DNA of 35,785 bases, from assembly GCA_043800705.1 (NCBI GenBank), contig JAZDMS010000009.1, forward strand, positions 1-35,785. The letters run 5' to 3'. Source of the DNA: Candidatus Altiarchaeota archaeon. Lineage in GTDB: Archaea > Altiarchaeota > Altiarchaeia > IMC4 > SCGC-AAA252-I15. The translations under genes were made by a program, and so were the position numbers. This document shows, in pieces, positions 1,157 to 23,765 of the stretch (the stretch's first letter is position 1; each line of letters opens with the position of its first letter). Under the pieces are notes generated by a model. That model did not search any database, had not been told where the DNA came from, and saw nothing but the letters and a program-made list of their open reading frames with translations.

Positions 1157-1212
1157 GTTGCGGCCGCGTCTTTTATTGTAATAATTGAATATTTTATTCC
1201 TTAGTGGTTGGT

Positions 1213-4200
1213 ATGGTTTCTAAGATACGCAAGAGAGACGGCAAGACGGAGAAGTTCAACAAGCAGAAGATCGCTGAGGCGATCCACAAGGCCATATCGT
1301 CCGTCGAAGGCAGGGACGGTGAGACTGCGGAGAAGCTTGCGGACAAGGTTGTGAAGGCTGTCGACAGGAAGTTCAAGGAAATTGTCCCCACCGTCGAAGA
1401 GGTCCAGGACGTCGTCGAGGAGACGCTGATGGACAGCGCCGAATCCGGCGTCGCCAAGGCCTACATACTCTATCGGGAGGATCGGAAGAAGATAAGGGAG
1501 GCCAAGTCGCTGATGGGCGTCGACGACGACATCAAGCTATCACTCAACGCCATCAAGGTGCTCGAGAAGAGATACCTCATGAAGGATGATGAGGGGCGGG
1601 TCATAGAGACTCCGGGGCAGATGTTTCAGAGGGTCGCCGGCAACATAGCCCAGGCCGACCTGTTGTACGACAAGGACGCGGACGTAAAGAAGACCACCCG
1701 GGAGTTCTACCAGATGATGTCGACCATGGAGTTCATGCCCAACAGCCCCACATTGATGAACGCCGGCCGCGAGCTGCAGCAGCTTAGCGCATGTTTCGTC
1801 TTGCCGGTCGAGGATAGTATGGAGAGCATATTTGAGGCGATAAAGAATACTGCGTTGATTCACAAGAGCGGCGGGGGGACTGGGTTCAGTTTCTCGAAGC
1901 TGAGGCCCAAAGGCGACATTGTGGCGTCGACGTCCGGTGTGGCGTCTGGGCCGCTGTCTTTCATGAACGTCTTCAACGCCGCGACGGAGGTAATTAAGCA
2001 GGGTGGGACGAGGAGGGGCGCGAATATGGCGATTCTAAGGGTCGACCACCCGGATGTTTTGGAGTTCATAGTCGCGAAGGAAAAGGAGAACGTCCTCAAT
2101 AACTTCAATATCTCCGTCGGGTTGACGGAGGACTTCATGAAGGCGGTTGAGTCCAACCAGGAATACGACATGCTCAACCCGAAGAGCAGGAAGCCTATGA
2201 GGAGGATCAGTGCGAGGACGGTCTTCGACCTCATTGTGACGATGGCGTGGAAGAACGGGGAGCCTGGGATCGTGTTCCTCGACAGGATAAACAGGGACAA
2301 TCCTACGCCATTCCTCGGGGAGATGGAGTCGACAAATCCGTGCGTGAGTGGTGATTCGTTAGTGTCCACATCGAATGGTTTGTTGCGGATGGATAAGATT
2401 GCTGAAAGGTTCGGAAACGGAGGAGTGGGGGCCGTGACTGATTGCAGGGTGCCGAAACCGCTAGAAAACGGCAGTGGTATTCTCCTCCAGGTTCAGGAGG
2501 CGGGTGTCGAGCTGAATCAGGTCTCTAAGGCATGGTGCAGTGGGGTGAAGGAGACTTATAGGCTCGTCACAAAATCCGGTTATGAGCTTACAGCCACGTC
2601 AGACCATATGATTCTCACAACTGGCGGATGGTTGGAGCTTCACGATATTGTGCCGGGGAAGCATGCGGTTTTGATACAGGCTGGTAGTGGGTACTTCAAC
2701 AAGGACACAAAAATCGGCTTCGTTGTCGAAGACGATTATAAAGGCGGCAATGGCAGGAGCTACCGCCATAATTTCCCCAAGACATGGTCTAGGGAGCTTG
2801 GTCAGGTTCTGGGATGGCTTGTCGGAGATGGCTGGCTAAGGGAGGGGGACGCCGATCGGAGGGTCGGTTTCACATTCGGCTCTGATGACTCGGAGGTTTT
2901 GGAGTATTTGAAGCCCGTATTGGACGGCATGTATGGACGCGATGTGAAGGCGGTTATCCGAAAAGGCGGCGTGATACATCTCAGCTATCATGGAAAATAC
3001 TTCGTCGACTACTTTAAGAAACTTGGTGTACGGGGTGTCGGTTCAGCGGAAAAAACAGTTCCTGAAACGCTCTACTCAGCGACGGAAGAGGCTGCTATCG
3101 GGTTCCTGCAGGGTTTGTTCACCTCTGATGGGACTATCCGGGATAATCCTAAATCCAACAGCTCATGGATTGCTCTGACATCAAAGAGCAGACATTTATT
3201 GCGGGGCGTGCAGCTACTTCTTCTGAATCTGGGCATCAAAAGCCAGATTTTAACTAGGAGCAGGCCGCCCAGAACGGGGTTGTTCGAGTATACGGATAAA
3301 AGCGGGCAAGTGAGACTGTATGGATCGGATGGGGTGCTTTTCGAGTTGGGGATATTCGGCGAAAGCAGAGAATTGTTCAGGAAGCGTATAGGTTTCATCA
3401 GCAGGCGCAAGCAGGAATCCCTCGACAACATACGGTTTAAGACGTTCAGGAAAACAGACTGGAGCGATGAGGTGCTGTTCGTCGAGAAATCAGGGCAAAT
3501 TGCGGTTTATGATTTGACCGAACCATTGACGCATTCGATGATAGTCAACGGCATAGTAGTTCACCAATGCGGCGAGCAGCCGCTTTTGCCGTATGAGGCG
3601 TGCAACCTCGGTTCCGTTAACCTCTCCAAGATGGTGGACGGCGGCCAGATCAACTACAAGAAACTCAGGCGGGTTGTCCATGTCGCAACCCATTTCCTCG
3701 ACAACGTCATAGACATGAGCAAGTTCCCCTTGGACAGGATAGAGAAGATGGTGAAATCCAACCGGAAGATCGGTTTGGGGGTCATGGGCTTCGCGGACAT
3801 GCTCGTCGAATTGGGGATACCCTACAACAGCGACCGGGCCGTTGAGGTGGGCCGGGAGGTTATGAAGTTCATAGACGGGGAGTCCAAGGCGACGTCGGTC
3901 GAATTGGCGCAAAAGAGGGGTTCGTTCCCCAACTTCAGAAAGAGCGTCCTGCCGCAGAAGGGGCTCAAGCAGATGAGGAATGCGACGACCACGACGATCG
4001 CGCCGACGGGGACGATCAGCATCATATCCAACTGTTCGGGCGGGATCGAGCCGCTCTTCGCCATCTCATTCATCAGGAACATCCTCGACAACACGGAGAT
4101 GCTCGAGGTCAACCCAATATTCGAGCGGATCGCAAGGGAGCGGGGCTTCTACAACGACGAGCTGATGAGGAAGATCGCCAAGAGGGGGACGATACAGGAT

Positions 4201-4572
4201 ATAGCGGAGATACCGGAGGATGTGCGGAAGGTCTTCGTTACGGCACATGACATCTCGCCGGACTGGCATATCCGGATGCAGGGGGCGTTCCAGGAAAGCA
4301 CCGACAATGCTGTGTCGAAGACTGTGAATTTCGCGAATCACGCGACGACGGATGACGTACAGAAGGTCTATCTGCTCGCGTATCACCTTGGCTGCAAGGG
4401 AGTGACGATCTATAGGGACGGCTCCAGGAGCAATCAGGTCCTGAACATAGAGGCTGTGAAGAAGTCGGCGGCTTCGCAGGAGAAATGCCCTGAATGCGGG
4501 GGGAGCATGACCGTCGAGGAGGGCTGCAGCACGTGTCACAACTGCGGGTTCTCCTATTGCAGCGCAGCATAG
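1213..4572 (+). CDS. nrdJ: Adenosylcobalamin-dependent (class II) ribonucleotide reductase with N-terminal ATP cone, intein-containing
   Basis: ATP cone (IRKRDG..FNKQKI), FMPNSPTLMNAG, QLSACFV, GGTRRGANM, NP/CGEQPL split by an intein, TIAPTGTIS, KGVTIYRDGSR and a C-terminal CxxC..CxxC. Start at ATG 1213, or GTG 1204. Confidence 0.97.
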   Translation: MVSKIRKRDGKTEKFNKQKIAEAIHKAISSVEGRDGETAEKLADKVVKAVDRKFKEIVPTVEEVQDVVEETLMDSAESGVAKAYILYREDRKKIREAKSLMGVDDDIKLSLNAIKVLEKRYLMKDDEGRVIETPGQMFQRVAGNIAQADLLYDKDADVKKTTREFYQMMSTMEFMPNSPTLMNAGRELQQLSACFVLPVEDSMESIFEAIKNTALIHKSGGGTGFSFSKLRPKGDIVASTSGVASGPLSFMNVFNAATEVIKQGGTRRGANMAILRVDHPDVLEFIVAKEKENVLNNFNISVGLTEDFMKAVESNQEYDMLNPKSRKPMRRISARTVFDLIVTMAWKNGEPGIVFLDRINRDNPTPFLGEMESTNPCVSGDSLVSTSNGLLRMDKIAERFGNGGVGAVTDCRVPKPLENGSGILLQVQEAGVELNQVSKAWCSGVKETYRLVTKSGYELTATSDHMILTTGGWLELHDIVPGKHAVLIQAGSGYFNKDTKIGFVVEDDYKGGNGRSYRHNFPKTWSRELGQVLGWLVGDGWLREGDADRRVGFTFGSDDSEVLEYLKPVLDGMYGRDVKAVIRKGGVIHLSYHGKYFVDYFKKLGVRGVGSAEKTVPETLYSATEEAAIGFLQGLFTSDGTIRDNPKSNSSWIALTSKSRHLLRGVQLLLLNLGIKSQILTRSRPPRTGLFEYTDKSGQVRLYGSDGVLFELGIFGESRELFRKRIGFISRRKQESLDNIRFKTFRKTDWSDEVLFVEKSGQIAVYDLTEPLTHSMIVNGIVVHQCGEQPLLPYEACNLGSVNLSKMVDGGQINYKKLRRVVHVATHFLDNVIDMSKFPLDRIEKMVKSNRKIGLGVMGFADMLVELGIPYNSDRAVEVGREVMKFIDGESKATSVELAQKRGSFPNFRKSVLPQKGLKQMRNATTTTIAPTGTISIISNCSGGIEPLFAISFIRNILDNTEMLEVNPIFERIARERGFYNDELMRKIAKRGTIQDIAEIPEDVRKVFVTAHDISPDWHIRMQGAFQESTDNAVSKTVNFANHATTDDVQKVYLLAYHLGCKGVTIYRDGSRSNQVLNIEAVKKSAASQEKCPECGGSMTVEEGCSTCHNCGFSYCSAA
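2341..3567 (+). mobile_element. 409-aa intein with LAGLIDADG homing endonuclease, inserted at the RNR active-site NP|CGEQ
   Basis: Begins CVSGDSLV after ESTNP. Block B LTATSDH; endonuclease motifs LGWLVGDG and FLQGLFTSDG; block F VYDL. Ends NGIVVHQ followed by +1 Cys (CGEQPL). Confidence 0.95.
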
Positions 4573-12186: not shown

Positions 12187-12209
12187 AAGTATGTCATGCA
12201 AGTATGTCA
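12187..12209 (+). repeat. Two direct AAGTATGTCA boxes at 13-bp spacing
   Basis: AAGTATGTCA at 12187-12196 and 12200-12209. GTATGTCATGC is identical to 15546-15556. Confidence 0.7.
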
Positions 12210-12415
12210 CTGAATAATCGGCGGGATTCTGCGGCCTACATGTCATTGTGGTGCTGTGGGGATGTTCTGCGGGCCTTTGTGGGTTTGGGGGCCGGAGGCG
12301 GGGGTGTGGTGATTCGACGCCGCAAGGCAGATGGTCAAGTCCATGCTCGAATTCGATCCGCCTTTTACAGCGTATTTAATCGGCTTTGATGTAGAGTTAA
12401 GGGAGGAGTCCAAAG

Positions 12416-13723
12416 ATGGTTGGCGAAGCTAAGGCGGGGGATAAGGTAGAGGTCATGTATCAGGGGAAAACGCATGTCGGCATCCTGATGCAGCGTCCTG
12501 GTCTGGCCCCTTCTGGCATCGTCACGTTGAAGCTCGCAAGCGGCTACGACATCGGCCTCGTGGAGTCAAAGGTAGAATCAGTCCGCGTCCTTGAGTCTTC
12601 GATGGCAATGAAGCGGCATACCGGCGGCGACGTCTCTTCGGAACCTTCCCTGCCGACGGTCTCGATACTCTCGACGGGCGGGACAATAGCGTCCAAAGTA
12701 GACTACAGGACCGGGGGGGTCTACGCGGCGTCGAGCGCATCCGACCTTCTGGAAAGCATGCCTGAACTCAGCCGGCTGGCCAATATACGGACTGATTCGG
12801 TTATGAACGTCATGAGCGAAGACATGAACCCGAAACTGTGGGTCAAGATCGCGCATGCTGTGGCAAAGGAACTCAACGGGGGCGTAGACGGCGTCGTCGT
12901 CACGCACGGAACCGATACGATGGGATACTCCGCCGCGGCCCTCTCCTTCATGCTGAGAGGTCTTGGCAAACCGGTGGTGTTGACCGGCGCCCAGAGGTCT
13001 ACCGACCGGGGGTCTGCGGATTCGTTCCTAAACCTCGCGTGTGCCGTCGCTTTCGCAAAATCCGACTACGCCGGCGTCTATCTTGTCATGCACGGCAGCA
13101 TGTCCGACAGCTTCTGCCTCGCCCACAGGGGTACAAAGGTCCGGAAGATGCACACCACCCGCAGGGACGCCTTCAGGTCGGTCAACTCGTCCCCGGTTGC
13201 GAGAATACTCCCTGACGGGAAAATAGAGCCCCTCTCGTCCGGCCTTCCGCAAAGGTCAGAATCCACTGTGTCGGTCGATGCAAACCTCGAGGAAAAGGTG
13301 GCTCTGGTAAAGGCATATCCCGGGATGGATCCGGGCATACTAGACTACCACCTCAAGAAGGGGGTAAGGGGTGTAGTCATCGAAGGGACTGCGTTAGGCC
13401 ATGTCCCGACCACCATCAAGGAGACATCGCTCATCCCGGGAATAGAAAAACTCATATCCTCCGGTGTGCTCGTGGCAATGACTACCCAATGCCTTTTTGG
13501 CCGGGTCAATCCGTACGTATACAGCAACCTAAGAGAAGTCTCCTCCAAGGGAGTCGTCTACTGCGAGGACATGTTGCCTGAAACCGCGTACGCCAAGATG
13601 ATCTGGGCACTTGGTAAGTCACGGAATGTGCAGGCGGCGAAGTCCTTGATGCTTCAGAACATCGCAGGCGAGATCACAACCCGGACCGAAGCTGACGAAT
13701 CGTCAGCTGACTTAATGTTGTGA
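12416..13723 (+). CDS. gatD: Glutamyl-tRNA(Gln) amidotransferase subunit D
   Basis: GatD N-domain (LKLASGYDIG) plus asparaginase-like STGGTIASKVDYRTG, HGTDT, GAQRSTDR, KMHTTRRDAF, DMLPETAY. SD GGAGG. Confidence 0.97.
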   Translation: MVGEAKAGDKVEVMYQGKTHVGILMQRPGLAPSGIVTLKLASGYDIGLVESKVESVRVLESSMAMKRHTGGDVSSEPSLPTVSILSTGGTIASKVDYRTGGVYAASSASDLLESMPELSRLANIRTDSVMNVMSEDMNPKLWVKIAHAVAKELNGGVDGVVVTHGTDTMGYSAAALSFMLRGLGKPVVLTGAQRSTDRGSADSFLNLACAVAFAKSDYAGVYLVMHGSMSDSFCLAHRGTKVRKMHTTRRDAFRSVNSSPVARILPDGKIEPLSSGLPQRSESTVSVDANLEEKVALVKAYPGMDPGILDYHLKKGVRGVVIEGTALGHVPTTIKETSLIPGIEKLISSGVLVAMTTQCLFGRVNPYVYSNLREVSSKGVVYCEDMLPETAYAKMIWALGKSRNVQAAKSLMLQNIAGEITTRTEADESSADLML

Positions 13724-13746
13724 CTTACTTTTGGCTCATTTGATTA
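13708..13746 (-). repeat. TGACTTA box array at the gatD 3' end; imperfect inverted copy of 15511-15553
   Basis: TGACTTA at 13708 and 13721, degenerate TGGCTCA at 13732. TGTGACTTACTTTTG (13719-13733) is the exact reverse complement of 15529-15543. Confidence 0.8.
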
Positions 13747-13836
13747 TGCGCAGAAGACCATATCCTCCCTATTGGAGATGTATGCGAACGCTCCTGCGCT
13801 TAATGGTAAAAACTACGGCATTTAAGACGCAGATAT

Positions 13837-13998
13837 CTATCCTTTGAGTTTTGTGATGACTTCCAGGAGGTCCTTCAGGCTGTCATAGATAATGAAACTG
13901 TTCCTGAGCTTTTCCGCATCGCTCTCTCCGAGTGCGTTGAGCTTCTTAAGCTTCACATACTGTTCATCAGTCAACGTCACAAGAACCTTCTTACTCAT
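13837..13998 (-). CDS. 53-aa ribbon-helix-helix (CopG-like) DNA-binding protein (not in ORF track)
   Basis: MSKKVLVTLTDEQYVKLKKLNALGESDAEKLRNSFIIYDSLKDLLEVITKLKG: alternating beta strand, helix, GxS turn, helix. SD-like GGTGTGAT and TATA-like TTTATATA upstream. Confidence 0.8.
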   Translation of the reverse strand: MSKKVLVTLTDEQYVKLKKLNALGESDAEKLRNSFIIYDSLKDLLEVITKLKG

Positions 13999-14006
13999 AT
14001 CACACC

Positions 14007-14036
14007 AGATAATATATTATCTACAAGATATATAAA
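14007..14036 (-). promoter_or_regulatory. Perfect 16-bp palindromic operator plus TATA box of the RHH gene
   Basis: AGATAATATATTATCT at 14007-14022; TTTATATA on the minus strand at 14029-14036. Confidence 0.65.
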
Positions 14037-14174
14037 TAAGATATTTACCGCCCATCTAGGGATACTATATAGCTACTCCTAATATATTCTCCCGGATATC
14101 TATTGGTTATAAATCTGCAGGCTATGTGAGAGTTGGTTATATCGCATTTTCAGACTGAATTAAAAATTCATGAC

Positions 14175-15356
14175 TTATTTTTTTGCCAATAATCGTCGTG
14201 CATTGTCTGAAAGCGTATAAACATACTGTAAACGGCCTATACGACTTTCTTTCCCCCTTCTGACAATGACGGGATAGGGTACGTTCGGCTTTCTTGCGAC
14301 TTCCATCTTGTTTAGGCCGCGTAATTTCCTGATCAATGATCCGATGCTTCTGATGTCCTTCTTCAGCGTCTCAGACAGCTCAGAGATGCTCAGCGACTCA
14401 TGTTCCAGAAGAAGGTTTACGATGTCCTGCTGGGTGGGTGACAGCTCGTTCATGAATCCATAAATCCCTTCCCTTTTGGCTAAGATGGGCTCTTCCGCCA
14501 ATTCCTCTGCGGATTCTTCCCCTGCGTCGTCGGCTTCGTCGGCAGGCTGGGCAACATCTCTTACGGGCGGAATCTGCTCAAGCCTCCCCAGGACGCTTTC
14601 GACGAAGTTGGTGTCGACCGACTCTATCCCCTTGGCAGCACACTCCTCGATGACCTTCTGGCCGTTCTCGAGAAGCTGCCTCGGAACCTGTGAAGATGAC
14701 TCGCAGAGCCTCCTTAGGCCGTCTTTCGTAAACGGGGCTATGCTTCTTCCCCCCGCCCATTCGATTCGTTCCTTGACCAACTCCTCCAGGTCCTCCAGCT
14801 CAAAGGCCCTCAGCCTTATAGACTTGGATTTGCGGTCCCGGAAGCTAGTTTCTGCCGTTATATTGTCTTCCAGGCCAGGCAGGCCGAGGAATATCATGAA
14901 TAGGTTGTCTGCGCGGTCATTGAGTATCCTCAGCCATTTGAAGATATCATTGTCGTAATCCTGGGCCTCGTCGAATATGAGGAGCATCTTTTCGGAGCCA
15001 AGACTCTTCTGCAACACCTCGCCGAATGAGGTCCGGTCCGGGTTGAAAAACAGCCTCTTATACACAGGGAGGGCGTTTTTTATCCTCCTCATCAGGACCT
15101 CGACAGGTTCGTAGCTGTTGAAGGCCACTACATATCCGATGCTTGCTGGCTTTTCCATAACCAGCTGATTCATGAATGTGGTTTTCCCGTAGCCTATAGG
15201 GGCTGTGATAACCATAATCCTGTCCCAGCCCCCGATACATTCACGGACTTCATCATACTCCTCCATTCGCCCTATGATGGGTATGTCAAGTGATGTGGAT
15301 TTGATGAACGGGCTCTTGGTCCATCCCAATTTCCTGTAGTATTCTTCTCTATCCAT
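14175..15356 (-). CDS. AAA+ ATPase (ExeA/AAA_22-like) with acidic linker and C-terminal winged-helix domain
   Basis: YYRKLGWTKSPF N-terminus, Walker A APIGYGKTT, Walker B LLIFDEAQ, Arg-finger region SFRDR, sensor-2-like VPR, acidic linker, then LSPTQQDIVNLL..LSISELSETL..IGSLIRKL..YVYTLS (wHTH pattern). Confidence 0.88.
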   Translation of the reverse strand: MDREEYYRKLGWTKSPFIKSTSLDIPIIGRMEEYDEVRECIGGWDRIMVITAPIGYGKTTFMNQLVMEKPASIGYVVAFNSYEPVEVLMRRIKNALPVYKRLFFNPDRTSFGEVLQKSLGSEKMLLIFDEAQDYDNDIFKWLRILNDRADNLFMIFLGLPGLEDNITAETSFRDRKSKSIRLRAFELEDLEELVKERIEWAGGRSIAPFTKDGLRRLCESSSQVPRQLLENGQKVIEECAAKGIESVDTNFVESVLGRLEQIPPVRDVAQPADEADDAGEESAEELAEEPILAKREGIYGFMNELSPTQQDIVNLLLEHESLSISELSETLKKDIRSIGSLIRKLRGLNKMEVARKPNVPYPVIVRRGKESRIGRLQYVYTLSDNARRLLAKK

Positions 15357-15360
15357 TTGC

Positions 15361-15556
15361 TAAATCAATTTGATTTTAATCATTAAAAAACCAAAAAAAG
15401 GAGTCAAAAAATGATTCATGGACTTATCATGACTTATATTCTTGACTTAAAATTTATTGGGTTAAAAAGATTAATTCACCATATTTTTTCCGAAAAAATA
15501 AAATCAAAAAGTAAGTCAAAGTGAGTCACAAAAGTAAGTCACATTGTATGTCATGC
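15361..15556. promoter_or_regulatory. AT-rich region with inverted arrays of TGACTTA/TAAGTCA boxes (origin- or centromere-like)
   Basis: Left: GGACTTA 15420, TGACTTA 15430 and 15443. Right: TAAGTCA 15512, TGAGTCA 15522, TAAGTCA 15535, TATGTCA 15547. An AT-rich spacer between them contains the palindrome TATTTTTTC-C-GAAAAAATA (15482-15500). The repeats are certain; the function is inferred. Confidence 0.7.
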
Positions 15557-15726
15557 TATTTACTCCTAAACCCCAGAATACCTCAACATTCCTGTTGTAG
15601 ATGAATGCGAGATGTGCTGTTTAAGGATAAATACTCCGGCATTTGGGCTGGAGATATTTAATATATCCATGAGCGCATAATACAACTCCGTAGCCCGGAT
15701 TTAGATTGTAATTCACTGGCGGAAAA

Positions 15727-16938
15727 ATGTTTGTTGGGATCGACGACACTGATTCGGTTGACGGCATGTGCACCACATACCTTGCCGCAAGACTATGCCT
15801 CAAACTAGGGGTGAAAGAGACCCCCTGCCTAATCAGACTGAACCCGAACATCCCATACAAGACCCGGGGCAACGGAGCGGTCGCATTCAAGACCGAGAAG
15901 CGGCACAAGAAGGAAATCCTCTCCTTTGTGAAAAAGAACTCGATGCTGGATGACCCTAAGACGAATCCCGGCGTCGTCTTCCTTGGAGACGAATCCCGCT
16001 CCCCCATGCTCCAAGAATTCTATCGACGGGCCGTCTCGGAACACGTCACCATCGAAGAAGCGGAAACAGCCGCATCATCAGCCCGGGCAGAATTCCATAA
16101 GTTCAAGAACGGGAGGGGGATCATAGGAGCCCTCGCAGCGATCGGCTTCACCGGAGACAGGACCTATGAGATCATCGCCTACAGGGACCGTGCGAATTGG
16201 GGTCAGCCGGCAAGGAAAATAGACCTGGAATCGGTCCGCAGGATGGACAGGGAACTGTACCCGAAGGTATTCGACAACATCGGCGCGGACGGAAAAAGGA
16301 TCCTAATAACCCCCAGAGGACACGACCCGATATTCTGTGGAATACGGGGAACATCCGAGGATGCGGTGAACGCAGCATGGGATATGGTGAAGCCGCTTGA
16401 AGCGATAGAGCTCGTTCAGGTATTCGCGACCAATCAGGCCACCGACGCCCACCTGAGGCGAAAAGGCATCGGCGAGCTGAAGCCCTATGATTGTGCAATC
16501 GTCACCGGCAGGGTAATCTCTAAACCGGGGACGGTGGCCGGAGGCCATACGATCTTCAGGCTCGAAGACGATACCGGGGCGATAGACTGTGCTGCATATA
16601 AGAAGTCCGGCAGCTTCCGAAAAATTGTAGCCAACCTAGAAGTCGGCGACAAGGTATCCGCATATGGGGGGCTGGGAAAATACCACAAAACACTTAACCT
16701 GGAGAAAATCGAGGTCTTGTCTCTTAGCATCAGGGAGACTGTGGAAATCCCGTCCTGTTGCGGAAAGAACATGACATCAACTGGGAGAGACGGGGGATAC
16801 AAGTGTAAAAAATGTGGCAAAAGAATAAGTCACAAGGAAGTCAAAGTAAGTCACGGTTTTGGGGCTATTTCCCCAGGCACATACGATGTGCCTCCTGGAT
16901 CTAGAAGGCACCTTAGCAGACCTGTTTTCCTCCGGTAG
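15727..16938 (+). CDS. tiaS: tRNA(Ile2) agmatinylcytidine synthetase
   Basis: GIDDTDS.DGMCTTY, LIRLNPNIPYKTRGNGA, GRGIIGALAA, TNQATDAHL, OB fold (GGH..CAAY..LNLEK), Zn ribbon, RRHLSRP. Confidence 0.96.
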   Translation: MFVGIDDTDSVDGMCTTYLAARLCLKLGVKETPCLIRLNPNIPYKTRGNGAVAFKTEKRHKKEILSFVKKNSMLDDPKTNPGVVFLGDESRSPMLQEFYRRAVSEHVTIEEAETAASSARAEFHKFKNGRGIIGALAAIGFTGDRTYEIIAYRDRANWGQPARKIDLESVRRMDRELYPKVFDNIGADGKRILITPRGHDPIFCGIRGTSEDAVNAAWDMVKPLEAIELVQVFATNQATDAHLRRKGIGELKPYDCAIVTGRVISKPGTVAGGHTIFRLEDDTGAIDCAAYKKSGSFRKIVANLEVGDKVSAYGGLGKYHKTLNLEKIEVLSLSIRETVEIPSCCGKNMTSTGRDGGYKCKKCGKRISHKEVKVSHGFGAISPGTYDVPPGSRRHLSRPVFLR

Positions 16939-16939
16939 G

Positions 16940-17170
16940 GTGTGAAGATCATCGGCTGTCGTTCGATCCGTTGGCAGGTTGTTTAGTCCTGGCATGATCT
17001 CTCATTGTGTGAAGATCATCGGCTGTCGTTCGATCCGTTGGCAGGTTGTATAGTCCTGACATGATCCACCATTGTGCGAAGATCATCGGCTGTCGTTCGA
17101 TCCGTTGGCAGGTTGTATAGTCCTGGCATGATCCACCATTGTGCGAAGATCATCGGCTGTCGTTCGATCC
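16940..17170. repeat. 67-bp tandem repeat, 3 full copies plus a partial 4th
   Basis: GAAGATCATCGGCTGTCGTTCGATCC starts at 16944, 17011, 17078 and 17145. Units are near-identical with no unique spacers. Confidence 0.95.
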
Positions 17171-20152: not shown

Positions 20153-20256
20153 ACGAAACAAACGTTTTTCAACCATATAAATCCTCGGGCTCCCCGGGCA
20201 GCATCCCCCATTTTTTACCTTTGCGGAACAATACCTATCGGTCCAAACGTATTGAG

Positions 20257-22449
20257 ATGAAAGTCCAAAAGAGCAACAAGCAGCTGGTGAGCTTTAACCG
20301 CAACAAGATCATACAGACATGCATGTCCGCGGGGTCGACGTTGAAGCTAGCGTCCCAGATAGCCTCCGAAGTCAAGGGCGAAGGATACGGTGGCATGACG
20401 ACCGACGAGATACGGATGCGCGTCTACATAAAGCTCAAGAAGATCAACCCCGACATGGCGGAACAGTACGTCTACCGCTCCAACATGAAGGTCCGGACGT
20501 CTGCGACCGTCGTCGAACCCTTCCTGTCATCGAAGATCGTGGACTCCCTAGTGAACGAGACATTCGTCGATAGGTCCTTCGCCGAAGCAGTGGCTAAGGA
20601 GGTGGAGAAGGAGCTTGGCAGGATGCGGCTTAACTACGTCACCGCCCCGCTGATTAGGGAGATAGTCAACGTCAAATTGCTAGAACATGGAATGGAGTCC
20701 GTGAGGGCGAGGTATACGCGTCTTGGGATGCCGGTCTACGACGTGAAGAAACTTCTGGAGGAGGGTTCAAAGGACATTGCCCAGTACAGCCCGGAGGCGG
20801 TTCACAGGGTGATGAGCGACCAGATCGCGCGCGAATACGCGCTAATAAACATTCTGCCTGTGGACATAGCCGACGCCCACATGTCCGGCCAGATACACAT
20901 ACATGACATCAGCCATTTCTCTCTGAGGCCGACGACCTTCTCCCACGACCTTAGGTTCTTTCTGAGGCGGGGGCTGACGGTCGACGGAAGCGGGGAATAC
21001 ACGGCGACCGCCGGCCCGGCGAAGCATCCGCAGTCCGCCTTCATGCACGCGCTCAAGGTCATGGTGGCCGGGCAGACGGAATGCTCCAGGGAGCAGTATA
21101 TCGAGGACTTCAACGTCCTTCTTGCGCCGTACGTCGTCGGCCTGGGCTACAACGAGGTCAAGCAGCTAGTCCAGACTCTGTTCTACGAGGTCTCCCAGAC
21201 ATCCGTTGGCAAAGGGGGGCAGGCCATATATGCGGCCCTCGTCTGCGACACGTCCGTTCCGAAGTACTTGACGGACATGGACGCGGTGCAGCCCGGCGGA
21301 AAGGTCCAGAAGGGTGTGTGCTACTCGGACTACTCGGGGGAGGCTCAGATGATATTGGATGCGATGCTCGACGTCAGCCTCGACGGCGACTTCCTGCGCA
21401 AGCCCTTCATCTACCCGAAACTTCTCCTGAACGTCATACGCATGCCGTCGGACGGGATGATGCAGAAGATATCAGACCTTTCCATCAGCTTCGGGGCGCC
21501 GTATTTCCTGAACACCGGCAAACACATGCACGGGCACCGGCGCGGATCGATACAGCATGTGACCATCAACCTCCCCCAGGTCAGCTACAAGAAGGGGGGC
21601 AACCTATTCGAAACCCTTGATAATAGGATGAAGAATGCCTTCGAAGTCCTGCTATTGAAGAAGACGGTGATGGAGAAGAACCTGGAGAGGAATCTCCTCC
21701 CGTTCCTAAAGCAGAAGGCCGCGGGCCTCAGGTACTACAGCCCCGAAAAACAGGGCTACACGATATCATACAGCGGCCTGAACGAGTTGGCTCTGTTGGA
21801 GACGGGGTATGATCTTCGCTCAAAATCCGGGGCGAGGTTCGGCAAGAAGGTTTTGAAGTCGATGATGAAGACGGTCGAGGGCTTCAGGCGGGAGAGCGAC
21901 CTGGATTTCATCCTCTCCGGGACCCCGAAGGGGATATGTTACGCAACGTTCGCGGCCCTCGACGCCGCGAGGTTCGGGGACAGGGCCAAGGTGAACGGGG
22001 GAGGCAGCCCCTACTACAGTAAGACCCATTATGTGAATGGAAAGAACCTCTCCGAGAAGCTCAGGATCGAGGGGCGGTTCAACAGGATTCTCAACGGAAG
22101 GACCCTGACTCACATCAGGCTCTCCGAGAGGGTGCAGGACGACGGCGACCTGTCCGGGCTGATATGGAAGCTCCTTGAGCGCAAAGACGTCGGATATTTC
22201 ACGTTCTCTCGCGCCCTCACCGTCTGCGGAAGGTGCGGCCACGTCCAGACGACCATCGCAGGAAAATGCGGGAAGTGCAGAAGCCGCCAAGTCAGCGTCT
22301 GGAGCCGGGACACCGGCCACCTGCAGAACATACGGACCTGGAGCCCGGCCAGGCGGCAGGCGTTCGTCGACGAATACAGGTACGACGCGAAAGGAAGAGG
22401 CCTGAGACTGTCCGCCAAGCAGGCCAACCTTATAAAAAACTACGGCTGA
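20257..22449 (+). CDS. nrdD: Anaerobic (class III) ribonucleotide reductase homologue with two ATP cones; catalytic residues appear degenerate
   Basis: Two ATP cones, TAPLIREIVNVKLLEHG, YTRLGMPVYDV, ADAHMSGQIHIHD, KPFIYPK, TINLP, CxxC..CxxC and SRDTGHL at the glycyl-radical loop position. Confidence 0.85.
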   Translation: MKVQKSNKQLVSFNRNKIIQTCMSAGSTLKLASQIASEVKGEGYGGMTTDEIRMRVYIKLKKINPDMAEQYVYRSNMKVRTSATVVEPFLSSKIVDSLVNETFVDRSFAEAVAKEVEKELGRMRLNYVTAPLIREIVNVKLLEHGMESVRARYTRLGMPVYDVKKLLEEGSKDIAQYSPEAVHRVMSDQIAREYALINILPVDIADAHMSGQIHIHDISHFSLRPTTFSHDLRFFLRRGLTVDGSGEYTATAGPAKHPQSAFMHALKVMVAGQTECSREQYIEDFNVLLAPYVVGLGYNEVKQLVQTLFYEVSQTSVGKGGQAIYAALVCDTSVPKYLTDMDAVQPGGKVQKGVCYSDYSGEAQMILDAMLDVSLDGDFLRKPFIYPKLLLNVIRMPSDGMMQKISDLSISFGAPYFLNTGKHMHGHRRGSIQHVTINLPQVSYKKGGNLFETLDNRMKNAFEVLLLKKTVMEKNLERNLLPFLKQKAAGLRYYSPEKQGYTISYSGLNELALLETGYDLRSKSGARFGKKVLKSMMKTVEGFRRESDLDFILSGTPKGICYATFAALDAARFGDRAKVNGGGSPYYSKTHYVNGKNLSEKLRIEGRFNRILNGRTLTHIRLSERVQDDGDLSGLIWKLLERKDVGYFTFSRALTVCGRCGHVQTTIAGKCGKCRSRQVSVWSRDTGHLQNIRTWSPARRQAFVDEYRYDAKGRGLRLSAKQANLIKNYG

Positions 22450-22487
22450 CGGAGATACTTAATCCCCTGCGCCCTAGGGGGTGAACA

Positions 22488-23765
22488 GTGAACACCCAAA
22501 GATACCAGTCCTGGGATAGTCCCCGCTGCCAGATACTGAAGTCGATGGCGAAGGCCAGGCCGATGAGCAGGCAGATGTGCCTCCAATGCAAAGGCGGCCG
22601 TCTATTGTGCGGCCATCGGTCGTGTCCGCTTCTTGCGAAGATAGACCTGCAGAATCCCGTGCAGGAGCGCCTCAAGGAGGAGATGTTCGGGCCTTCCACG
22701 TCGGTGTTCGTCGGCTGGAAGGACTATCCGAGCGTCTACGTCGGGCCGATGACCGCGGTGGACCGGGAAGGGATCGGCGTATTGGACAATCCGGGCGAAT
22801 GGTACGGCCTCGGGTTCGACGACATCGTCGGGATGCGTTCGATGCTTGTGCGCGGCAGGCAGAAGCATCCCGTGGGCGAGCGCAGCCCGTTCGTGTCGAA
22901 GATGCAGGAGCTCGCGCTCTCCGTCAGGCCGGTGGACGTAGAAACTCACTACACGAAACGGCCGCATTTCAGCATGTCGTTCTCCCCCGTGAGCCAGCCG
23001 ATGGGGGCGTCCGGGGAGATAAGGAGCGTCGACATAGTCGACAACCCGGTGATTCCGCGCAAGGTCGACCACGTGGTCAACGACGAACTTCCCGCATCCG
23101 AGCAGATATCCACCCTCTTCGACCGCAGCTTCGACGTCTACTATCTCTCCAACGTCCTGTCATCCGGCGTACTCGGACAGTCGGAATCGAAGCGGATGGT
23201 CCCGACGCGCTGGGGCATAACCGCGGTCGACGACATGCTCGGCCGAAGGCTCATGAAACGGATAAGAGACCACCCGGAGGTGTCGGACTACGAGGTCTAC
23301 TCGAACACGTACCTGGAGAACCACTTCGAGATACTCCTCATCCCCGGGGCGTGGGAGTTCGAGCAGTTCGAGGCATGGAGCCCGAACACCCTCTGGACCA
23401 TGTCATACGATTCCCCTGCCATCGTGGCGGAGCATGAGGCGCACAAGGGCAGATGGGACTACGCCTACAACGAGGGCGGAGGATACTATGCGGGGAGGTT
23501 CGCGGTAGCGGAGGCCTTGGACCGGATGAGAAGGCAGGCGAGGGCAATCGTATTCAGGGAGATCTACGACGGCTACATCATGCCGGTCGGCGTGTGGGAA
23601 GTCAGAGAAAACGTCAGGAAGGCGATGGAGAAGAAGCCTAACAGGTTCGCGACACTGAAGGGGGCGCTCTCGGACGCGGGCTCGAGACTCATCATAAACA
23701 TCCGCAAATACGCGGAAAAATCCCAGATACTCAGGCAAAGGAGGATAACGGACTACCTGAGATGA
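22488..23765 (+). CDS. nreA: Nre family archaeal DNA repair protein (DUF650/DUF651) with C-terminal PIP box
   Basis: CLQCKGGRLLCG..CP, VFVG..YPSV.VGP, MVPTRWGITAVD, GGYYAGR, PVGVWEVRE and PIP box QRRITDY. Confidence 0.95.
   Translation: MNTQRYQSWDSPRCQILKSMAKARPMSRQMCLQCKGGRLLCGHRSCPLLAKIDLQNPVQERLKEEMFGPSTSVFVGWKDYPSVYVGPMTAVDREGIGVLDNPGEWYGLGFDDIVGMRSMLVRGRQKHPVGERSPFVSKMQELALSVRPVDVETHYTKRPHFSMSFSPVSQPMGASGEIRSVDIVDNPVIPRKVDHVVNDELPASEQISTLFDRSFDVYYLSNVLSSGVLGQSESKRMVPTRWGITAVDDMLGRRLMKRIRDHPEVSDYEVYSNTYLENHFEILLIPGAWEFEQFEAWSPNTLWTMSYDSPAIVAEHEAHKGRWDYAYNEGGGYYAGRFAVAEALDRMRRQARAIVFREIYDGYIMPVGVWEVRENVRKAMEKKPNRFATLKGALSDAGSRLIINIRKYAEKSQILRQRRITDYLR

Follow-up and report, generated by a model that had tools for sequence, protein, structure and literature searches.

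A heptamer array paired with an ExeA-like winged-helix ATPase: a candidate chromosome-maintenance site in Altiarchaeales

Introduction

Orc1/Cdc6 specifies the archaeal replication origins known so far, except for one Sulfolobus origin that WhiP specifies, and few archaeal segregation systems have been described to our knowledge. Iteron-type plasmid origins consist of a Rep protein and direct repeats of about 22 bp upstream of rep. Partition cassettes with ribbon-helix-helix (RHH) proteins as centromere binders include ParR/parC, ParG/parH, omega and SegB, and in the fork traps tus/TerB and rtp/TerI-II the gene of the protein lies next to its own sites. The locus compared here with these systems lies on contig JAZDMS010000009.1 of Candidatus Altiarchaeota archaeon (assembly GCA_043800705.1), all 35,785 nucleotides of which form the window of this study. 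It holds a gene for an AAA+ ATPase with a predicted C-terminal winged helix-turn-helix (wHTH), a gene for a 53-amino-acid RHH-like protein, and a field of TAAGTCA/TGACTTA boxes.

Comparison of related genomes shows that the RHH-like/ATPase operon and the boxes form one cognate protein-DNA module, which has been passed on vertically between gatD and tiaS in one clade of Altiarchaeales. The data support a single chromosomal cis site per genome with a dedicated, predicted binding protein. We regard the module as a chromosome-maintenance site with a probability of about 0.7. Our tentative first choice among the possible forms of such a site, at short of even odds, is an initiator/iteron-type module captured from an extrachromosomal replicon, which would serve as an accessory or lineage-specific origin-like loading site.

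Results

The box field

The window is the entire contig C21 of an Altiarchaeota metagenome-assembled genome (G000; 2,003,634 bp, 43 contigs, 87.6% complete); genomes, contigs and loci are cited below by our own numbers, prefixed G, C and L. Exact copies of the heptamer number ten, at 13615+, 13708-, 13721-, 14171-, 15430-, 15443-, 15512+, 15535+, 16826+ and 16847+, and the 35.8-kb window has none outside these ten. The sequence-only reading, which had listed them and by eye seen none elsewhere in the window, is thus confirmed by the motif count and by dinucleotide shuffles of the window, which gave a mean of 2.33 copies and a maximum of 8, with ten reached in 0 of 100. It had also asked whether the motif is equally frequent elsewhere, and the genome-wide count shows that it is not: a fifth of the 52 copies in the genome (10) fall inside the 3.2 kb of the locus, as do all four genome copies of the 9-mer GTAAGTCAC. 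No second site with at least two exact boxes in 150 bp, in a cluster of at least four with one mismatch allowed, was found genome-wide. The heptamer is rare in the genome, ranking 148 among 2688 heptamers with two G/C. Genome-wide avoidance was nevertheless rejected as an explanation, because the rarity is accounted for by the sub-words: outside the locus 42 copies are observed against 33 expected from a Markov model, so the enrichment is local and comes without specific depletion elsewhere.

The seven one-mismatch copies reported earlier, at 12190, 12203, 15282, 15420, 15522, 15547 and 16837, all exist. Hits allowing one mismatch are not enriched across the whole window, however (53 against 60.7 expected), and since they occur at chance frequency, only the following were given weight: the four boxes in register with exact ones (15420, 15522, 15547 and 16837) and the 13-bp pair 12190/12203. 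The pair probably belongs to the field, judged from its 13-bp spacing in a window where one-mismatch copies are common. The box spacing of 10 to 13 bp holds at the clusters. The features of the field are as follows.

12190-12209, plus strand: two degenerate boxes, both GTATGTCA, whose starts are 13 bp apart; they lie upstream of gatD.
13615-13621, plus strand: single exact box (GTAAGTCAC), within the gatD coding sequence.
13708-13727, minus strand: two exact boxes at a distance of 13 bp; they overlap the final codons of gatD together with its stop, where gatD and the RHH-like gene converge.
14171-14177, minus strand: exact box, the TAA of which is the ATPase stop codon.
15420-15449, minus strand: cluster 1, three boxes (one mismatched) spaced 10 and 13 bp apart; it lies immediately upstream of the putative promoter of the ATPase gene, placed from a TATA-like sequence.
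15450-15511, no strand: AT-rich spacer separating the two oppositely oriented box clusters.
15512-15553, plus strand: cluster 2, four boxes (two mismatched) at 10, 13 and 12 bp.
16826-16853, plus strand: three boxes (one mismatched) within tiaS; they lie in the variable linker that follows the final CxxC of the zinc ribbon.

The genes are arranged as gatD > <RHH-like <ATPase [boxes] tiaS>, and the ATPase and the 53-amino-acid protein are encoded in the same orientation, as had been read. The four genes were taken from a library scan of the open reading frames (ORFs) of the window.

12416-13723, plus strand: gatD.
13837-13998, minus strand: 53-amino-acid RHH-like protein, on the same strand as the ATPase and encoded downstream of it.
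14175-15356, minus strand: 393-amino-acid AAA_22 ATPase.
15727-16938, plus strand: tiaS.

The GC content of the two small genes and the intergenic region is 0.44-0.48, against 0.55-0.58 in the flanks.

A few copies of the heptamer elsewhere were noted. One exact box lies 27 bp upstream of the start codon of the canonical cdc6 in G000 (contig C26:12536, L013), and it is not conserved in the 4 other genomes checked. Other close TAAGTCA pairs away from the locus were seen in G000 (C14:105335 and 105458), G016 (C3:442799 and 525179), G006 (C10:14502) and G023 (C6:27534); these could be secondary sites or chance.

Conservation of the module

Of the 49 genomes of the order, 15 carry an orthologue of the ATPase (55-72% identity), and these span 10 genera. 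They comprise G000, 13 of 20 genomes in the window's own family and the single genome of a second family, with none in the 27 genomes of five others. At least two of the apparent absences are assembly cuts. The contig of G013 ends within the box array beside tiaS, so that the same locus is cut, and that of G005 starts inside the final 26 codons of the ATPase gene. Assemblies that break inside the locus, in the box array or in the ATPase gene, were seen in G013, G005, G008, G011 and G036:C186; the arrays may be hard to assemble or variable between strains.

The order gatD > <RHH-like <ATPase / tiaS> is identical wherever contigs extend far enough. Repeat arrays, which the sequence-only reading had suggested looking for beside orthologous ATPases, were found at every orthologous locus: 11 such loci of 2.8-4.2 kb carry 6-11 exact boxes each, in genomes of 35-56% GC. 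Every ATPase-tiaS intergenic region (132-370 bp, 20-32% GC) contains two box clusters with an AT-rich gap of 15-108 bp between them. The convergent gatD/RHH junction has a box in most orthologous loci, the box on the ATPase stop codon recurs in L010, and L012 has one near that stop. Within the zinc-ribbon linker of tiaS, exact boxes occur in 6 of 13 genomes and in two different reading frames of a poorly conserved linker, and the heptamer is therefore kept at the DNA level. The spaced pair TAAGTCA-N4-8-TAAGTCA is found in 13 of the 15 genomes with the ATPase against 4 of the 34 without, one of the four being G013 with its cut locus. Outlying boxes are mostly directed outward (37 of 48), with 21 minus against 8 plus on the left and 16 plus against 3 minus on the right.

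The history of the locus can be read from G035, which is without the ATPase and in which gatD and tiaS adjoin on the same strand with 258 bp between them. This adjacency, together with the GC dip, suggests that the clade's ancestor acquired the 2-kb module as an insertion between the two genes, with boxes spreading into the neighbouring gene ends afterwards.

Paralogous ATPases with their own heptamers

The pairing of ATPase and box is not confined to TAAGTCA. Three genomes of another family (genus g15: G024, G028 and G042) encode a 378-amino-acid relative of the ATPase, with 22-25% identity by alignment and tblastn. Its neighbours are trp genes, a methyltransferase gene and, 2 kb downstream, a gene presumably ScpB-like, a name that we read from its N-terminus. 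The box of this system is GTTGACA, with 24 copies in the 10-kb bin of the locus and 6 over the 114 kb of contig outside that bin. Seven direct repeats of it abut the start codon of the ATPase gene, and others lie within neighbouring coding sequence; 13-bp GTTGACA pairs were observed inside a trpE-like gene at L120 (G024:C9:91700-100500), L117 and L130. Similarly, G036 (genus g24) encodes a relative of 386 amino acids with seven TTGCAGA boxes in its AT-rich upstream region. Its gene lies directly upstream of, and co-oriented with, a second Orc1/Cdc6 gene (L118, G036:C78:1-8000), the main cdc6 of G036 being elsewhere. The 8.9-kb contig also bears a repeat-rich partial ORF and a fragment that we take to be transposase-like.

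The commonest same-strand spacing of boxes is 13 bp in all three subfamilies (13 of 30, 9 of 17 and 2 of 3), and 21 or 9 bp comes next, so that two boxes, at alternating distances of 13 and 9 bp, make up a unit of about 22 bp. The box word thus co-varies with the ATPase subfamily while the 13-bp phasing stays, which argues that protein and box are a cognate pair. The putative recognition helices of the winged helices differ among the three subfamilies, and neither the g15 nor the g24 ATPase gene has an RHH-like neighbour. That these paralogues keep their arrays points to the C-terminal winged helix of the ATPase itself as the predicted reader of the heptamer. It also follows that the RHH protein is not a constant part of the system. 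In this respect the earlier proposal of a chromosomal cis site with dedicated binding proteins is supported in part: the unique site and the pairing of box and ATPase stand, and the RHH-like protein is weakly assigned and absent from the paralogues. ExeA-like paralogues of 444-471 amino acids in f1 genomes (L115, L116 and L119) were set aside as a different family without upstream arrays.

The ATPase and the 53-amino-acid protein

The ATPase matches AAA_22 above the Pfam threshold (E 2.4e-12; 47.7 bits, cut-off 27). The match of its C-terminal winged helix to HVO_A0114 is below the cut-off (E 3.8e-4; 20.6 bits, cut-off 27.6), and the match to TIGR03015 (pepcterm_ATPase; E 2.2e-11) is far under the cut-off of that model. 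The AAA part also matches phrog_296, a phage family labelled 'DNA transposition protein' (E 2.4e-13), and the C-terminus weakly resembles Lrs14, Sta1, ArsR-type regulators and Csa3. Walker A (GYGKT) and Walker B (FDEAQ) are invariant across 12 orthologues. Relatives are annotated publicly just as 'AAA ATPase' or 'ExeA'. A profile search of 1.84 billion representatives returned 13 proteins at E<=1e-30 and 316 at E<=1e-10, and the clusters nearest to it by language model and by structure consist of AAA_22 proteins from DPANN archaea, uncharacterised, and of ExeA-like proteins from bacteria. No peptidoglycan-binding domain was found in the ATPase, and searches of PDB sequences with the protein or its profile yielded no meaningful match. 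PADLOC gave weak wHTH matches only, so that a reading as a defence system was dropped.

In the AlphaFold model (pLDDT 76.8, pTM 0.60) a predicted AAA+ core and lid are followed by a disordered acidic linker at residues 260-299 and a winged helix at residues 300-391. Three helices stand in the model between strand 75-79 and the Walker B strand 124-128, the region inspected for an initiator-specific helical insert (ISM). In a Foldseek search of the PDB, ranks 1 to 5 all go to Cdc6/Orc1 chains (408-447 aligned columns, TMq 0.43-0.49). The best matches over the full length are 7jgr_G (E 3.2e-11), 2qby_A (E 1.1e-9), 1fnn_A and 1w5t_A; the matches include Drosophila and yeast Cdc6, S. solfataricus Orc1 on origin DNA (2qby_A), P. 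aerophilum Cdc6 and A. pernix ORC2. There is no transposition ATPase among the 50 Foldseek matches listed, and a viral fold library gave generic clamp-loader and AAA matches only. The proposal that this is an AAA+ plus wHTH protein which is nonetheless ExeA/AAA_22-like therefore agrees with both the family match and the fold matches, and the structural comparison with Orc1 that it called for places Cdc6/Orc1 first.

The small protein, described before as an RHH protein, fared less well. Its gene is present and conserved, with 60-83% identity in 11 orthologues, and its assignment to the RHH class is weak. Among 12 orthologues, RHH_3 is matched in 4 (best E 0.051) and RHH_5 in 1 (E 0.015). The monomer model (pLDDT 72.5) has coil at 1-10, helices at 11-19 and 27-52, and no strand. 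Foldseek gave no match to it at E<=0.001, with the RHH proteins PrpA and ParD2 appearing at E 3-8 only, and a PDB sequence search with the protein profile returned nothing meaningful. We call the protein RHH-like.

Chromosomal position

The G-C skew at third codon positions (GC3 skew) was scored separately for the ORFs of each strand, which removes the transcription-linked part. On the 159-kb contig G023:C1, where the boxes lie at 98 kb, the seven 10-kb bins that could be scored between 10 and 90 kb have a positive mean skew, an eighth is positive in plus-strand ORFs alone, and all five bins from 90 to 140 kb are negative. On G020:C61 (104 kb, boxes at 55.5 kb) the first 40 kb have a positive mean and the part from 60 to 104 kb a negative one, and G006:C1 shows the same change from plus to minus in weaker form. 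A single change point was fitted to each contig and its F compared with 300 permutations. The change from plus to minus lies 8.6 kb from the boxes in G023, 16.7 kb in G020 and 6.4 kb in G006, with the observed F reached in 0 of 300 permutations each, and 16.0 kb away in G016 (10 of 300); in G014 the change point is not significant (69 of 300). A strand-independent change of sign is thus present 6-17 kb from the boxes in 4 of 6 contigs. The skew of G000 itself is too weak for use, and G014, G024 and the single-contig G026 likewise have too little.

The skew check proposed in the sequence-only reading is in this way answered in part: a boundary exists, it is not at the boxes, and its polarity is uncalibrated. 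The module is near, not on, a boundary of strand asymmetry. By our own estimate, a few per cent of random loci would lie this near to one or other of two such boundaries. The cumulative maximum in both G023 and G020 comes directly after the Band7 gene, where the conserved synteny block holding the locus ends. Archaeal skews are described in a 2026 survey as frequently lacking a simple relation to replication (PMC12999951).

The canonical cdc6 that we had been urged to look for is present in G000, on contig C26, and no repeat array was found near it in the 2.4 kb examined. The flanks of cdc6 in the clade show no skew switch, except for a weak, opposite one in G016. The cdc6-bearing contigs of G023 and G020 have almost no strand-independent GC3 skew, and in the first 20 kb of contigs C2-C21 of G023 its size is 0.006-0.18; strand-independent skew seems uneven along the chromosome.

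The 14-mer TTGTAGTGCCTAAC found at the skew switch of G023 was rejected as a marker of the site, since it is a dispersed element. It occurs in G023, G006 and G017, with 11 copies in 9 of 131 loci (one at L029:10469-10615), and a near copy stands beside the box array of G036. It may be a small mobile or regulatory element.

Other features of the window

Rfam and tRNA scans of the whole window gave no match. No integrase or other mobile gene was found among the window ORFs scanned, no secretion gene among the 26 scanned, and no transposase partner for the ATPase in the window; xerA is on a contig other than that of the locus. A 67-bp tandem repeat of 3.4 copies (95% matches) at 16940-17170 begins 2 bases past the tiaS stop and extends into the 3′ end of a TM2-domain gene, and it has no other copy in the genome. 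Positions 1204-4572 encode a class II-type ribonucleotide reductase of 1122 amino acids with a LAGLIDADG-domain intein; further along, 20221-23765 holds an Nre gene and the gene of a second reductase, the anaerobic NrdD.

Discussion

The grounds for preferring an initiator/iteron-type module are the Orc1/Cdc6-like build of the ATPase, the layout around an AT-rich spacer, the iteron-like period, the adjacency of the G036 paralogue to a cdc6 gene, and the insertion history. An origin is also favoured because the cdc6 of G000 is without an array in the 2.4 kb examined and most cdc6 contigs are without a skew switch, and the skew change near the locus was counted in its favour as well. In such a module, winged-helix protomers would bind head-to-tail pairs of boxes spaced by 13 bp, each unit measuring about 22 bp, and with this geometry ATP-bound AAA+ protomers could align on one face of the DNA. 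The AAA+ domains would oligomerise with ATP over the phased units, on the two clusters that bracket the AT-rich spacer, and the outlying boxes at the 3′ end of the operon and in tiaS, mostly directed outward, might be drawn in through looping or spreading. As cluster 1 overlaps the ATPase promoter, the complex would presumably also repress its own operon. The module itself is the sole target conserved across the subfamilies, and for this reason we read the complex, rather than a regulon, as the function.

Several observations weigh against an origin-like site. By sequence the ATPase is not a member of Orc1/Cdc6, although its best solved-structure matches are Cdc6/Orc1. It has no match to Cdc6_C (PF09079), where the true cdc6 of the same genome scores 64.9 bits, and hhalign of 12 ATPases against the 5 Cdc6 proteins of the clade gave a probability of 2.1% (E 0.023) over the generic AAA core only. 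The Foldseek TM-scores are just 0.43-0.51, with RuvB and RFC close behind Cdc6/Orc1. The skew changes off the boxes, and the G023 ORFs from about 90.8 to 98 kb are negative or near zero, like the far flank. The cumulative G-C maximum lies near the locus in G023, G020, G006 and G016, and G goes with T at third positions in G023; under the bacterial rule that the cumulative G-C maximum marks the terminus and not the origin, this points to a terminus. The rule could not be calibrated here, as the GC3 skew of single-contig G026 stays within about +/-0.09 without pattern (20 of about 70 stretches of 20 kb) and as ORFs point toward the locus (298) little more often than away from it (262), a weak gene-strand bias. 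Owing to their shared synteny, the related genomes count as about a single evolutionary observation of position. The orthologues are missing from 34 of the 49 genomes, and the module is therefore not generally essential. Finally, the boxes overlap likely promoters, as plain operators do.

Alternatively, the module may be a centromere-like partition or anchoring cassette, in which the RHH-like protein, the winged helix or both coat the arrays, the ATPase is the nucleoside triphosphatase (NTPase) partner by which this part of the chromosome is positioned or segregated, and expression is autoregulated as in parC-parM-parR, parH-parF-parG, delta-omega and SegAB. We hold this to be unlikely, though it is a serious competitor. 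The order of cis arrays, NTPase gene and small RHH-like gene is that of such cassettes, the promoter region is flanked by two box clusters, and each genome has one site, a few kb off the skew boundary and not on it; the putative ScpB-like gene, so named from its N-terminus, 2 kb from the g15 paralogue fits as well. Yet AAA+ proteins of this kind are not among the known partition motors, and the closest folds are initiators and clamp loaders, not ParA/ParM. The small partner is the other difficulty, in that the RHH assignment is weak and the g15 and g24 paralogues have arrays without an RHH neighbour.

More doubtful is an ordinary autoregulated transcription factor, with an NTP-dependent wHTH regulator and an RHH co-repressor acting at the divergent ATPase/tiaS promoters and nothing more. 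Cluster 1 lies beside the TATA-like element of the ATPase and cluster 2 between a second TATA-like element and tiaS, both promoters being presumed; the boxes are confined to a single locus, and the C-terminal resemblance to Lrs14, Sta1, ArsR-type regulators and Csa3 would suit a regulator. Against this account, the neighbours vary by subfamily (gatD/tiaS, trp genes or cdc6), leaving the module as the only conserved target, and the 17-24 boxes occupy 3-4.5 kb and extend into coding sequence, where they fall in two frames. Their 13-bp phasing has been kept, 37 of the 48 outlying boxes point outward, and a skew boundary lies close to the locus.

A site linked to the terminus, at which outward box groups and a winged-helix protein act as polar fork barriers or terminus organisers, is improbable in our judgement. 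It draws on the cumulative G-C maximum near the locus in the four genomes named above, the G/T coupling in G023 and the two opposed orientation groups of outlying boxes. Against these stand a skew change 6-17 kb beyond the box field, so that one fork would traverse all boxes, an uncalibrated skew polarity, and an ATPase, which known terminator proteins are without. In Sulfolobus, moreover, termination is reported as stochastic fork collision in one account (PMC3020120).

It is very improbable that the module has no cellular role today and is what decay has left of an integrated plasmid or virus, or else a cassette of the addiction type: it looks inserted between gatD and tiaS with GC below the flanks, its AAA part matches the phage family phrog_296 (E 2.4e-13) and the G036 paralogue adjoins a second cdc6 and what we take for a transposase-like fragment, but synteny is strict, the genes are intact over 10 genera (ATPase 55-72%, RHH-like protein 60-83% identity), the boxes stay exact at 35-56% GC, and no integrase or mobile gene was found in the window. 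The comparative data already lean toward purifying selection together with site-specific binding, which would speak against such a relic.

A bolder form of the chromosome-maintenance reading can be stated, on which we would bet against rather than for. The replichore boundary of the clade would be set by an ExeA-like, Orc1/Cdc6-built ATPase of a previously unknown family, with phased heptamer arrays as its sites, either as a new initiator beside Cdc6 or as a terminus or centromere protein, and the sister subfamilies would have re-tuned the winged helix to other heptamers. If true, this would be a new archaeal initiator with its own origin, or the first such site-specific terminus or centromere protein in Archaea.

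The module, conserved and present once per genome, is a candidate for a new chromosome-maintenance system in an uncultured lineage: its fold is initiator-like, its sites have an iteron-like geometry, its specificity takes three co-varying forms, and it lies close to a skew boundary. No published description of this system was found in the literature on Altiarchaeota replication origins, on archaeal ExeA/winged-helix ATPases with repeats, or on TAAGTCA in archaea. The heptamer arrays and a soluble protein of 393 amino acids make binding, oligomerisation and unwinding assayable in vitro, and read-depth profiles from metagenomes could separate an origin from a terminus without cultivation. Even as a mere autoregulator, the system would be of an unusual, AAA+-driven kind.

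Comparison with known systems

The ATPase shares with the Orc1/Cdc6 proteins an AAA+ base, a lid and a C-terminal winged helix, and these proteins are its best solved-structure matches. As with Orc1/Cdc6 and their origin recognition boxes (ORB), its gene lies beside oppositely oriented repeats around an AT-rich stretch, and one paralogue adjoins a true cdc6. Unlike them, it has no Cdc6_C match and a profile probability of 2%, and a canonical cdc6 is also present in the genome. The box here is a 7-mer in 13-bp pairs, probably unlike the ORB.

Iteron-type origins are resembled in that direct-repeat units of about 22 bp abut the start of the g15 gene, the arrays overlap their own promoter, and a winged helix is the likely reader. 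The differences are that the protein carries an AAA+ ATPase, which Rep proteins are not known to have, and that the module is chromosomal and vertically inherited, with extra boxes over 3-4.5 kb. With the RHH partition cassettes it has in common the succession of arrays, NTPase and small RHH-like protein, with short repeats in two clusters around the promoter, whereas its NTPase is an AAA+ protein with a DNA-binding domain of its own, not ParA/ParM, and the RHH protein is absent from the paralogous systems.

The ExeA/TniB/MuB/TnsC-type AAA_22 proteins give the best sequence-family matches of the ATPase (AAA_22, pepcterm_ATPase and phrog_296). In contrast to them, it lacks a peptidoglycan-binding domain and has no transposase partner in the window, and the module adds a C-terminal winged helix and a private box array. 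Similarly to Tus/Ter and RTP/Ter, the gene stands beside its own opposed sites, the outlying sites form two opposed groups and the sign of the skew is terminus-like, but the module has an ATPase and the skew change is outside the box field.

Failing the sequence tests of Orc1/Cdc6, without a ParA/ParM NTPase and without an ExeA or transposition context, the module is outside the families that define these systems. It is nevertheless predicted to work like an initiator-iteron or centromere cassette.

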